A stretch of 62,907 bases of DNA, the filler included. It is 12 parts of 12 records of this genome, joined end to end, with 100 filler letters (N's around TTAATTAATTAA, not from the genome) between each part and the next. Parts side by side here need not be neighbours in the genome. Positions count along the whole stretch, not along the records: positions 1 to 9,297 come from SRR7504441_19328; positions 9,398 to 12,543 come from SRR7504441_19335; positions 12,644 to 16,562 come from SRR7504441_19346; positions 16,663 to 22,351 come from SRR7504441_19348; positions 22,452 to 26,090 come from SRR7504441_19358; positions 26,191 to 31,613 come from SRR7504441_19360; positions 31,714 to 35,960 come from SRR7504441_19361; positions 36,061 to 39,218 come from SRR7504441_19362; 4 more parts are not named here. The stretch is one strand, 5' to 3'. A model generated the notes under the pieces. That model worked only from the letters and a program-made list of their open reading frames with translations. It searched no databases and had not been told where the DNA came from. How positions within the stretch are numbered: the stretch's first letter is position 1; each line of letters opens with the position of its first letter. This document shows positions 1,307 to 59,982 of the stretch, in pieces. The position numbers and the translations under genes are program-made.

Positions 1307-1465
1307 GCTTGCGGTGTGCCGGTACGCGGTGTAGGATTGGCCGTTATATGCGGTTAGGCGTCTCACGGGATGACTGAGATGCTATTCCCATGGAGCCCTA
1401 TTCCCTACTAATTATTCCCTGATATTAACAAGCGGCTTATACCTGTACTATAATTATGCGATATT

Positions 1466-3151
1466 CTATATCAGCTCTGCCGCTTCAGCAGCGTTTGGCG
1501 TAATCTCATCCACTTCATTGACGGTGGTCCAATCCAACTCCGGGTGCATCTCGACTAGCTCCTCCCAGAACAGCTGCTTGAGGTCTTCGCACCTGCCCCA
1601 GCGCTCAATTGCAGCGCATTGGTCAACCATACTGCACATCGGTCTCTTCAAATTCCCACGAGAACAACTCGGGAGCAGTCGGCTCGTCACTCGGGTCATG
1701 CAAATTGGCAAAGTACGCATGCTTGAGAGCCTCCTCCACCTGGCCAGCATCTGAGCCGCGCAAGCCGAAATCACCGAAGTTCGATCTTGCGGTAGTACGG
1801 TCAACATGAGCTTCAGCAGACTGAGTAGCTCTGGAGGCACGTCGGGGAACAAGCTCTCAAAGCTCACTGTTGGAGATTGAGGCAAGTTCTTCATGTATGT
1901 GAGCGCGTGCTCCGAAGAGATGCCATCCAGATTTGGAGGAACCCCTAAAATCTTCGCTATCAACTCGAGCTGCCAGACACACGCATCAGACGTCGAACTG
2001 CAATGTGAGAGAGAGCCTGGTGAAGGTAATCTCTACCGGCAAAGATCGGCTTTAGCATCACAAGCTCAGCCAACACACATCCAACTGACCACACATCCAC
2101 CGCGCACGTATACTCCTGGAATCGGTGCAGTGATGCCCGGCTCAGTGCAATGGGCCGTGCCTGCCAGGAGAGCATGATCTCTGGGGCTCGGTACCAGCGT
2201 GTTGCGACATATTCAGTCATGAACAAATCTTTCGGACTATCCGAGCATGTGTGCCTGGCCACCTATCCAACGCGGTCACGCCGGGAAGGCCGCAGTGCAG
2301 CCTGACCCTGGCCATCCCAAAGTCACAGATCTTTAGATCGCACTCACTGTTGATCAGGAGATTGCCTGCCAGCCTCGCTGAGCCGTTGGGACATGGCCAT
2401 CGGGCACTCGGCTTGATATCACGGTGGATGACATTCGCGGAGTGGATGTGCAGCAATCCCCGCATTACCTCCAGACCAGCGCTCCCCTGCCAGCTGGGCA
2501 CAGGCGAGGCTACCTGATACATAATATATTCGAGCTGGTCTAGCTCAAGCTGATGACCACCCGCAATCACCTACAGATATATCTCAACGACCGCCGCCAT
2601 CCTAGCCCAGCCTGCGCCAGATCGGTGTCCATTAGATCAGTGGCAATATACACATCATCCAGCTGCTCTTTGCTCGCCGCCGGCAGGATGTCAGTCAACT
2701 GCACACTATCACATACAACCGGGCCAACCGCTCACCTCCAGGATGTTCTCGTGCTTGAAATACTTCAAGAGCTGCCGCCCCGGGCTCACCGCGCCCTGCC
2801 CGAGCGGTGCCTTGATCTCTCTCAGGGTCCGGCGGGCCGCTATGTGAGTCTGGAACGGATTCGACAGCCGCTTGATTGCAACTGAGCGCTGGGTCTGCTC
2901 ATCACGCGCCGCGCTGGCACCCTGGTGAGCGCCCCAGCCGCCAGCGCGCACTCACACGACGAATCCGTTGGCGCCTGCCCGGCTCTACTCGGCCACTGGC
3001 GGGGGTGACGGGCACACCTTCGCCCACTGGAGAAAGCACCGTGTAGCGCGCGGTCAGATCGAACCGGCGGCCGCCTGGAGCGTGGCTGAGGCGCCTGACT
3101 GGCCGGCGAAGGGGCACCCACGAGCACGCTGGTCATCTGCAGGCCCGCCAT
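1466..3151 (-). CDS. Mitogen-activated protein kinase (TEY type), 14 exons
   Basis: After removing 13 introns of 35-47 nt: [73 protein letters not shown]. Confidence 0.95.
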
Positions 3152-3192
3152 CGCCGGTTCTATCGAGCACTGCCCGGCTTTCCGTTGGAGCC
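3152..3192. promoter_or_regulatory. 41-nt divergent intergenic region with CCGTTG motif
   Basis: Lies between ATG 3151(-) and ATG 3193(+); CCGTTG at 3182-3187. Confidence 0.6.
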
Positions 3193-57187: not shown

Positions 57188-57314
57188 ATAGCATTGCTAC
57201 AACTTGACATCGTGACATGTATCGCACAATGAGCTATTAAATTGAGCACTTGACTTATGATATTAAAATACTCAGACTTGTTGTCTTATGCTAGACTAGT
57301 CGCTACTATTGACT

Positions 57315-59893
57315 CTAGATCTGACTACTTGATGTTGCTAGTTTATGCAATAGCGGGCGAAATGCCTCTTGATAAGCTTGGTGCGTCTCTTGGACGGCCT
57401 GGAACAGCTTGACCTTAATTGCAGCAAGCCCATGCGGGTGGAGCTTCTGGTGCATCTTCACAAGCGTGCCCGCTGTGAGGCGTTCTGTGCTGACCACTTG
57501 CTCGGCCAGCCCGAGCGAGTCCGCGAAGTCAAACTGCTTGAGCCTGTACGCGAGTCCAATGAATGGTGTACCAGCGGCTGCGCTGCACCCCCAGAATCTG
57601 AATGCCACATCCAGCTGGGGTGATACCTGAGCACACAGCCGTGCAACCGGAAGCAGATAGATGACTCAGCCTGCTTCAGCATCCAGAGCAATACTGGGGC
57701 GTCCTTGACTTGCGGTATCCAACCCAGCCTGTGATCCAGCCGCACTCCAGTAGTTTCAGCAATCTTGAGTACTCGAGCAACCAATTGCTCGATGGCAGGG
57801 AGATCAGCCCCAGCCCACATCGGATAGATAACTATGGTATGCCTGTATCCTCCTCAGCAACTTGGGCCAGCAGCCGATAGATACCTCTTAGAGAGCGTGA
57901 CAAGCGCACCAGCCAGCGCTTCTGTCAGCGAGGCTGGGTCCTTGCCATAGATTTCACTGCTAGCGGCACCCCAACTAACCATCAGGAGTGGCCGCTGCCA
58001 ATCCAGCTTCAGACCGTTAAGCTGCTGCACACCCTCCCAGCCAGCATCGCCCGAGTGCCGCCCAAATAGCTCGTCAACACCATACAGCAGCCCCGGGTCC
58101 CTCAACATCTGCAGTTCCATCGACTGCGGAGCTGCAAGCTTAGCCACTCCAGCAGTGATTGGTCCCCGCCAGCCGCCAGCCTGCAGCTTGCTGAGCACAT
58201 TAAAGAACTTTAGATATTCTGGTGGGAGCACAGCTGACAGGTTGCCAGGCCACTGGCCCTCCCTCAGCTTTGCCACAAGCTCGAGGGCAATTGGGCGAAG
58301 CAAATCTTCGTAGCCCGTGCCGCAGGCAGCCAATGGCTTGCCGGCAGCAGCGGCGTGCGAGAGCTGGCATAGCTCAAGTGGCCGAAGCAGAGAGCCACCA
58401 CCCAGCATCACAAGGTCGTGTTCAGGAAAGTCGCCTGCACTTAGGGCTTGGCAGGTCTAGCCAGGGCTCGTACCCCGTTCATAGGTGGTGCAAAGCGGCT
58501 GGATGTTTTCAAATACCACTGCGAGTCCCTGCGAGTGCGCTGCCGCCGCTACTGCACGAGCACAGCCCTCATACACAAGCTCATCGCCGAGATTCTTGTA
58601 CCTGCCAGGCCAACTGAATCGCAGCCAGGTAGCCAGTCCACACCCGACATTGCCCACGTAGCCTACGCGGATAATTCGATCCCGCGGTGGACGTTTAGCT
58701 GGCAGCAGTGAGCCAGCCAGCTGCGCAACAAGTTGATCTTGTTGTTTACTGCCGGGTGTAACCAGCTCTGATTTGCACCCCTGCAGTTGCTCACAGCACC
58801 CTGGTCCGCCCCCGTGGCAAACAGTGGCCACTGGGACGCCCACAGCCGACAATACGTGTCCTAGACGATGCTCCACCCCCCCGTCGACAACTAACGCTGC
58901 ACCAGCCAACATGGCCACCAGAAGCCGCGGCTCCTGAGCTTTCCCGAGTGCAGCCACCCGTGACCCGGGCCAACCCGCGGCCATCAGCTGTTTGTACAGC
59001 TCGGCCACAGTTTCTCTGTCTTGGAACGGCCTGAGCGGGACTACTAGCAGGCTAAGCTCAGGCTCGAGCTGCTCTGCCAGCCCTTGCCTCCTCATCTCAC
59101 TCAGTTCAGCCACCAGCCCACTCAAACTCGCTACAGGGGTACCCCCGCCCAGCAGCACCACCACGAGCTTGCCAGGCGCCGGCAACAGCGCCAGCACCTG
59201 GGCGGCTGCCCGGTCCATAGGGAGACCAGCCCATCGCTCCAGCTCCGACTCTGCACGCAGCCCGGGCAGGCATCTGGGCAGTCCAGTGGCCTCCGCCAGC
59301 AACTGACTGGCTACACAGCCACTGGCCCGCTGCAGTCCGCTCAAATCCAGCTGGTCCAGCGCCGGGGGCGTCTCTGCCGGGCCGCGCAGCACCAGCACCG
59401 GCCGGTCGGCTCCAGCCGCCCGGGCCAGCTCGGCCAGCTGACAACGGTCGAGCGCGGCGCCCGGTCCGAGTATTGCGAAGTCAAACTGCTCCAAATGCCG
59501 CACAAATCCGCCGCACCGCGCCATCGACTGCAACAGCACCGCGGTCGCCCCGCGTGCCCCAAACCACCGGGCGACCGAGCGCGAGGCGGCCAGGTAGTGG
59601 AAATCCTCGTCCAGCCGGGTCATGTCGGTCCGGCCGTAATAGATCCCCACCAGCGCCCCGCCCGGCGCTGCCCCGCACACAAAGTCCAGCTGGGGCCGGC
59701 CGCGGCTCCAGGCCACTCCATCCAGCCGGCGCTCGCCGCAGCGGCCGAGCTTCGGCTGCACCGCCGACAGCAACGCCCGGGGGCCGGAGCCGGCCGGCGC
59801 GGGGATCCGGTGGCGGTGGGGTGGCTCAGACACCCGCAGCACCTGCCCGGCGCACAGCCAGGCCAATAGAGGCCACGCAAGCACGCCACGCAT
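57315..59893 (-). CDS. Polysaccharide pyruvyl transferase family protein with signal peptide, probably two domains
   Basis: C-half: RVGYVG..KNLGDE, MLGGGSLL, GTG, RGPIT, DPGLL, FRLHGCVL, LAYRLK. N-half is a degenerate parallel (ILGPGAAL, VLRGPAET). Confidence 0.75.
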
Positions 59894-59982
59894 GCTGCCT
59901 TGTTGGAGCCCCCGTCGGTCCGTTTTTTTTTTCGATTTGTTTTCGACAGCAGCACTGCTGCTCGCGGCCTCTGCTCGCTCAG

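Follow-up and report, generated by a model that had tools for sequence, protein, structure and literature searches.

AACGG, a Myb-site-like word close to start codons, is probably a general promoter signal in a compact, GC-rich eukaryotic genome

In yeast, the Myb-family factors Reb1 and Tbf1 act on a short word in many promoters, often divergent ones, and organize a nucleosome-free region that serves both directions; the Reb1 word is TTACCCG, and these sites lie further from the ATG than those described here. In Trichomonas, a core promoter element called M3, which resembles a Myb recognition element, is described as being bound by a Myb-like protein, M3BP (PMC4450334). In plants, the mitosis-specific activator (MSA) element is given as (T/C)C(T/C)AACGG(T/C)(T/C)A, with the core AACGG and with MYB3R as the binding protein (PMC5405339). 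The general Myb consensus is given as YAACKG (PMC7172335). Here we describe the word AACGG (CCGTT on the opposite strand) in a stretch of 62,907 nucleotides (nt) of DNA, hereafter the window, which consists of 12 contigs of 3-9 kb joined end to end through synthetic linkers. An initial annotation of the window had proposed that YAACGG is a near-universal element upstream of its genes and that a MYB-family protein reads it.

We confirmed AACGG as a real upstream word by its enrichment, its position, its independence of orientation and its specificity. To define promoters, a codon log-odds score trained on 11 Pfam-supported open reading frames (ORFs) was used to segment the window, in-frame ATGs were catalogued for each segment, and doubtful regions were inspected by reading. 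The curated set of 34 start codons corresponds to 22 promoters (12 head-to-head and 10 one-directional). The enrichment was measured in 24 upstream stretches from these promoters, each of 80 nt or less and 2011 nt in all. AACGG/CCGTT was present in 17 of the 22 curated 5′ regions and the YAACGG hexamer in 14. The upstream stretches contained 21 matches to the 5-mer, whereas the frequency in the rest of the window predicts 3.09 (p 1.9e-11). Ranked by the number of regions (17 of 24 stretches), AACGG was first among 512 strand-collapsed 5-mers. Ranked by p it was second; poly-A was ahead, yet confined to 5 stretches. In 11 divergent gaps there were 11 AACGG matches against 3.08 expected, a number reached by none of 2000 shuffles; 8 of these 11 gaps carried the word (2.63 expected), and the twelfth divergent gap contributes two further sites. 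Thus, AACGG is probably a general promoter signal, placed ahead of roughly three quarters of the genes sampled.

Because the start codons were curated, a curation-free test was also run, in which the first ATG of each ORF (at least 60 or 100 codons, positive codon score) was taken and the zone from -45 to -16 was scanned. AACGG ranked first of the 512 5-mers under all three settings (11 of 56, 9 of 39 and 10 of 40 starts; 2.7, 1.9 and 1.9 expected, respectively). The word was sparser in other parts of the genes: only 1 match was found in 2132 nt after stop codons (1 of 27 stretches), coding sequence contained 1.89 matches per kb, and intron-like gaps contained 2 matches in 833 nt. CCGTT occurs at 46203 and 46305 in two apparent introns of a MYND/SET-like gene (45192-47358). 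Therefore, AACGG is not excluded from introns.

The enrichment might be an artefact of base composition, of CpG content or of start codons chosen with the motif in view. The motif was indeed picked post hoc, the starts were curated, and the uncurated test of the gaps, given below, had a modest outcome. However, dinucleotide-preserving shuffles of the upstream stretches gave 5.29 ± 2.21 AACGG matches with a maximum of 13 in 2000, and thus never reached the observed count. Moreover, the first rank was obtained without the curated starts, the 5′ stretches differ sharply from the 3′ stretches, and one-base variants of the same composition class are unenriched. Within the window, an artefact is largely refuted, and we consider it most improbable.

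Every coordinate that the initial annotation had given for the motif was found to carry it. All 18 of its YAACGG positions (15 regions, three doublets) are among the 71 matches to this hexamer in the window (about 61.9 kb; shuffles, 48 ± 6; 0 of 100 shuffles reach 71), and the rough chance figure of the initial annotation, about 0.1 hexamer in 80 nt, agrees with that number. The sites at 37244, 37254, 47564 and 59920, given as the 5-mer only, are present. The hexamer had been counted in 15 of 22 regions: 14 of 22 were obtained with the curated starts, and the fifteenth, at 36076, is a putative promoter next to a 12-nt gene stub at a contig edge. Four regions that had been called empty indeed have no motif. 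One further motif-less region, the tandem promoter 20232-20322, had been missed and was added by us, as was the divergent pair at 25742-25917. The term "near-universal" is too strong, because 5 of the 22 promoters lack AACGG and because other words, namely TACCGGTA and CTACGAR, are also promoter-specific.

The word tends to lie about 30 nt away from the start codon. AACGG was centred at -40 to -21 for 16 of the 34 starts, whereas 1.29 were expected (p 7e-13), and each of the other 20-nt bins between -200 and +200 contained 0-4 copies. As the initial annotation had stated, the motif stands in either orientation, on separate contigs and ahead of unrelated genes, which include genes for a kinase, an EF-hand protein, a beta-lactamase-like protein, IFT46, an aminotransferase, an RCC1 protein, a TPR-methyltransferase, an LtrA-like protein and an ion channel. 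The contigs are unlinked in the window, and promoter sites are present on 11 of the 12. Of the copies in the -40 to -21 peak, 9 are sense and 7 are antisense, and in 3 of the 8 one-directional promoters with the motif only antisense copies are present. This mixed orientation favours a site at the DNA level over one at the RNA level. The individual sites are as follows.

1341..1345, minus strand: TAACGG, sense, 34 nt upstream of the minus-strand ATG at 1306 of an actin-related protein gene (Pfam Actin)
3182..3186, minus strand: CAACGG, sole site in the 41-nt divergent gap 3152-3192; 30 nt to the ATG at 3151 (minus) of a kinase gene (Pkinase) and 6 nt to the ATG at 3193 (plus)
4844..4848, minus strand: CAACGG, sole site in the 60-nt divergent gap 4814-4873; 30 nt to the ATG at 4813 (minus) and 25 nt to the ATG at 4874 (plus) of an EF-hand protein gene
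7286..7290, minus strand: TAACGG, 5 nt upstream of the minus-strand ATG at 7280 of a beta-lactamase-like gene
14142-14146 and 14169-14173, plus strand: two TAACGG in the 123-nt divergent gap 14109-14231; 33 and 60 nt to the minus-strand ATG at 14108, 85 and 58 nt to the IFT46 ATG at 14232
22084..22088, minus strand: TAACGG, 34 nt upstream of the minus-strand ATG at 22049 of a class-V aminotransferase-like gene
25826-25830 and 25838-25842, minus strand: two CAACGG with starts 12 nt apart, in the 176-nt divergent gap 25742-25917
28500..28504, minus strand: CAACGG, antisense, 51 nt upstream of the plus-strand ATG at 28556 of an RCC1-repeat gene
32931..32935, minus strand: CAACGG, sole site in the 69-nt divergent gap 32904-32972, 27 and 37 nt to the ATGs
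36077..36081, plus strand: CAACGG at a contig edge, 3 nt from a putative gene start, a 12-nt stub that runs off the contig
37244..37258, plus strand: two AAACGG with starts 10 nt apart, in the 145-nt divergent gap 37145-37289 and followed by TACCGGTA at 37277; the ATG at 37290 of a TPR-methyltransferase gene lies 41 and 31 nt downstream
41719..41733, minus strand: two TAACGG with starts 10 nt apart, in the divergent gap 41619-41768 and with TACCGGTA on either side at 41640 and 41751; the uncertain ATG at 41769 (in-frame ATG also at 41688) is 45 and 35 nt away
47564..47568, minus strand: AAACGG, 35 nt upstream of the uncertain ATG at 47604
49494..49498, plus strand: CAACGG, sole site in the 42-nt divergent gap 49476-49517, 18 and 19 nt to the two ATGs; the plus-strand gene is LtrA-like
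54289..54293, minus strand: TAACGG, 17 nt upstream of the minus-strand ATG at 54271
54696..54700, plus strand: TAACGG, 23 nt upstream of the ATG at 54724 and about 10 nt past the stop (54686) of the preceding gene on the same strand
56021-56025 and 56044-56048, minus strand: AAACGG and CAACGG, 33 and 10 nt upstream of the ATG at 56059 of an ion-transport protein gene, both antisense to it
59920..59924, minus strand: AAACGG, sole site in the 89-nt divergent gap 59894-59982; 26 nt to the ATG at 59893 (minus) and 58 nt to the ATG at 59983 (plus)

Two of the starts used are uncertain: 41769 (alternative, 41688) and 47604 (alternative, 47552). For the latter, 47604 gives the better signal-peptide-like opening, weakly. 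By eye, hydrophobic signal-peptide-like N-termini were seen at the starts 4813, 20231, 47604 and 49475, and a TtcA-like PP-loop protein is among these; the minus-strand gene at the gap 25742-25917 looks U-box-like. The doublet CCGTTGGA at 61144-61161 (12 nt apart) was rejected as a promoter site: it consists of repeated Pro-Leu-Glu codons inside an EF-hand gene.

The ATG-to-ATG distance of the 12 head-to-head gaps ranges from 41 to 176 nt, and 9 of them contain at least one AACGG site. Each of the five motif-bearing gaps of 41-89 nt has a single site, 6-58 nt from either ATG. The expected arrangement, one site that lies between head-to-head genes and near both, was therefore found in these five gaps, and it is geometrically plausible that one site is common to both divergent genes. 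The four gaps of 123-176 nt have two sites each, in the same orientation, and 3 of these 4 pairs are 10-12 nt apart from start to start. The three divergent gaps without AACGG are 82, 90 and 164 nt long.

These distances also bear on a different explanation, in which AACGG lies downstream of the transcription start as a core element contacted by TFIID or as an RNA signal in the 5′ untranslated region (UTR), and divergent transcripts overlap head to head. A fixed distance from the ATG is equally expected of such an element, and gaps of 41-60 nt scarcely fit two separate promoters. The consensus of the Drosophila motif ten element (MTE), CSARCSSAACGS, contains AACG. However, an element of this kind is expected in the sense orientation only. 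The 9 sense and 7 antisense copies in the peak depart from the strict sense orientation of the MTE type, and antisense copies stand alone in the three one-directional promoters mentioned above. We regard a downstream element as improbable. A distance of about 30 nt could reflect either very short leaders with a TATA-like placement of the site or a site within the leader.

The 23 promoter sites align as H-AACGG-H. Among these 23 sites, G is found 0 times just before the core, 0 times just after it and once at the next base after. The base before the core is Y in 18 sites and A in 5; the base after is A in 10 and Y in 13, and C two bases before the core is present in only 9. Because there is no information beyond the immediate flanks, the promoter sites are not copies of one repeat. 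The word itself is strict. None of 15 one-base variants comes near the 21 matches of the core, and AACTG, AACGC and GACGG are unenriched. The variants above expectation were ACCGG (17 against 5.8), AACCG (8 against 2.8) and CACGG (9 against 4.1), and no others; ACCGG belongs to a separate palindrome. Strain contigs of four DNA runs were compared with positions 1-9297. Indels adjoin the sites at 1341 and 3182, and among the differences listed none falls inside these sites, at a depth below 5 and with low strain-level coverage. At this depth, and with the differences listed, the strain contigs are not read as evidence on selection.

Next to the known systems, the word is most readily compared with M3. 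In Trichomonas vaginalis, a protist poor in TATA boxes, a short word that resembles a Myb recognition element is likewise found near the start codons of many genes with no relation to one another. At the core promoter, M3 determines which start site is used. The two differ in several respects. The source organism here is a GC-rich, intron-rich, free-living marine flagellate, and its element is known from sequence alone. About three quarters of the promoters sampled carry AACGG, whereas M3 is one of several alternative elements. The M3 consensus was reportedly given by Smith et al. in 2011 as DRCSGYTD. CCGTT fits the CSGYT part of this consensus, and the base that precedes it is R in 13 of 23 sites. 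The word in the window is stricter, with AACCG enriched weakly. Taken together, AACGG resembles M3; assignment to the same family would require the protein.

The plant MSA element shares the identical AACGG core, on either strand (PMC5405339). It marks genes of the G2/M phase and is scattered in long promoters, whereas here the word precedes unrelated genes with a constant spacing of about 30 nt. We rejected membership in the MSA class because the flanks differ from the consensus (A after the core in 10 of 23 sites) and because the genes, with 17 of 22 promoters bearing the word, are not a mitotic set. As for the equation of YAACGG with the MYB core and the MSA element in the initial annotation, the core and the G-free flanks fit YAACKG and AACGG, and the extended MSA consensus does not apply. 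The animal Myb site YAACKG (c-Myb, Dm-Myb) matches in its core and, in 18 of 23 sites, in the Y before it; its T variant, AACTG, is unenriched here, and it marks a subset of genes, whereas AACGG stands in most promoters sampled here. The yeast Reb1/Tbf1 systems are alike in concept; the word differs, and AACGG is closer to the ATG. Microsporidia likewise have short conserved words just upstream of start codons and about one gene per kb (PMC2803860), whereas the words, the lineage and the base composition are all different. An RFX X-box was also considered and rejected: GTTGCC was read at some sites and is absent from the IFT46 promoter sites. In the literature surveyed, we found no free-living protist or alga for which AACGG had been described as a general promoter word.

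From the 5′ enrichment, the fixed distance from the ATG, the independence of orientation and the strict word, we favour a double-stranded DNA site that is bound by a protein at or next to the core promoter. Specifically, H-AACGG-H is a putative site of a sequence-specific factor that would mark most RNA polymerase II promoters of this genome, a reading that we hold to be reasonably likely. The Myb recognition element is matched by both the core and the flanks, and for this reason the binding factor is most likely a Myb/SANT-type helix-turn-helix protein. Such a factor would dock on AACGG about 20-40 nt upstream of the start codon in either orientation. The bound factor might then recruit or position the initiation machinery nearby, from which very short 5′ UTRs would result. 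AACGG would take the place of a TATA box, in the manner of the Myb-like M3 element of Trichomonas, and/or its factor may keep the tiny promoter nucleosome-free, like the yeast factors of the Reb1 type. In the shortest head-to-head gaps (41-89 nt) one site would suffice per gap, and a pair in the same orientation would be used in longer gaps. We infer the binding protein, the relation of the word to transcription starts and its bidirectional use.

A promoter-proximal site could be real and yet be read by a protein without a Myb domain, for example a zinc-finger protein or a lineage-specific general regulatory factor, and the match to Myb would then be a coincidence, as may happen with a 5-bp word. 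The enrichment, position and orientation are silent on the binder, and the existence of other promoter-specific words, such as TACCGGTA (5 of 5 copies in promoters), agrees with this explanation, as do the missing Myb domain and the behaviour of AACTG described in the next paragraph. In contrast, the core and the exclusion of G on both sides fit a Myb site well, and there is a precedent for a Myb-like factor that reads a similar core promoter word. We consider a non-Myb reader unlikely, and retain a Myb/SANT protein as the favoured binder.

Several points weigh against the interpretation of AACGG as a general, Myb-read promoter site. The sample is small (62 kb and 22 promoters), the starts were curated partly with the contexts of the initial annotation in view, and those at 41769 and 47604 are uncertain. 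A fully automatic test of divergent gaps gave a weaker result (12 matches against 4.03 expected, rank 3, p 1e-3), and the rank dropped to 13 and 19 at stricter segment cut-offs, because these admit weak exons into the gaps; in the convergent gaps of the same test, AACGG ranked 401-492. Five of the 22 promoters have no copy, and the motif could lie within 5′ UTRs. A Pfam scan of 91 coding segments from the window detected no Myb domain, and the naming of a Myb protein as the binder is a guess from the word itself. YAACKG is fitted only in its G form: AACTG, which the K permits, is unenriched (3 against 3.5 expected; AACGG, 21 against 3.1). In 10 of 23 sites the core is followed by A, at a position that is Y in the plant MSA consensus. 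Finally, no relative close enough for a test of conservation was found by protein searches, in metagenome contigs or in an IFT46 alignment. A lineage-specific protein of 478 amino acids had no match in the metagenome contigs. The IFT46 alignment comprised 59 loci, of which 9 were examined, and the nearest four had 55-57% identity. Because these four loci are cDNA-like, with a differing GC (0.51-0.53) and with 5′ leaders of 73-195 nt, they do not represent the same kind of genome.

A bolder form of the favoured reading is that a Myb-type protein on one word of 5-7 bp replaced the TATA/TBP-style recognition as the general promoter-specifying step. One molecule, or a pair that is one helical turn apart, would then nucleate initiation both ways, promoters could shrink to 41 nt between start codons, and the mRNAs would be near-leaderless. 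We think such a replacement unlikely. If true, it would be a second independent case beside M3 of Trichomonas, and a far more pervasive one.

Other words were found upstream of starts. Five copies of the 8-bp palindrome TACCGGTA are present in the window (9476, 9501, 37277, 41640 and 41751). All five copies lie in 5′ regions of three promoters, 13-73 nt upstream of the ATG, and a 7-mer of the palindrome is the most enriched 7-mer upstream of starts. In two promoters TACCGGTA is placed between the AACGG doublet and the ATG. By its distribution it is probably a second promoter element. CTACGA(A/G) was found six times upstream of starts (0.4 expected) in five regions. Copies of it lie at 27936, 27958, 28005, 45138, 7353 and 7370. 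Two of the five promoters without AACGG, 27891-28054 and 45102-45191, contain it, and CTACGAR may be an alternative element. The motif-less divergent promoter 27891-28054 is AT-rich (GC 0.38) with GTTA runs, and also has a direct repeat of 25 nt (aatccctacgaagt.atttgtttgt). An element of about 19 nt, GTACCGGTATTTACAAGTA, forms a tandem repeat upstream of the ATG at 9549 (9475-9518), and a similar word in the inverse orientation is present upstream of the ATG at 56059 on another contig (about 55979-55993).

The GC content of the window is about 60%, and the genome is that of a compact, GC-rich, intron-bearing eukaryote. Pfam detected an actin-related protein, a protein kinase, EF-hand, IFT46, a serpin, RCC1, Vint/Hint, a MYND finger and an ion channel. 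The source, as judged from its predicted proteins, is a flagellated eukaryote. Parts of the window sequence occur only in marine or aquatic metagenome runs, with no RNA run among the runs listed. ORFs are interrupted by short introns of about 37-45 nt with GTG...CAG ends (for example, 2700-2740, 46203-46245, 46284-46324 and 61264-61306). Rfam and tRNA scans of the window found no RNA genes. The best identities in protein searches were 47% for the TPR-methyltransferase, 63% for the TtcA-like protein (over part of the query) and 61% for IFT46. In Atlas look-ups, a JmjC cluster leaned to Chlorophyta, and the other look-up gave uninformative low scores. The contig joins (9298-9397 and ten more) consist of 44 N, TTAATTAATTAA and 44 N. 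In a repeat search, D1, the largest family of direct repeats, and all 25 inverted-repeat pairs listed consisted of these artificial linkers, and coding repeats were the only other repeats in the window. Contig 2 (9398-12543), the only contig without a promoter AACGG site, has a GC of about 0.52 and codon scores much weaker than those of the other contigs; it may be intron-rich or foreign to the genome of the other contigs.

Spacing is as tight between gene ends as between gene starts; for example, 46 nt separate two convergent stop codons (4189-4234). Convergent gaps are AT-rich, and their top enriched 5-mers are TAATA, TTAAA and AATAG. This enrichment suggests an AATAAA-like poly(A) signal that may be common to both strands.

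If AACGG has this role genome-wide, the promoter code of the organism would be among the simplest in eukaryotes, a single short word that keeps a constant distance from the start codon, and the word would be common to head-to-head genes that are only 41-89 nt apart. If the proposed role is true, AACGG would offer a handle on initiation in TATA-less, ultra-compact genomes and would provide a practical rule for start-codon and gene-boundary calls in bins of uncultured protists. It would also show whether Myb-like factors became general promoter factors more than once.

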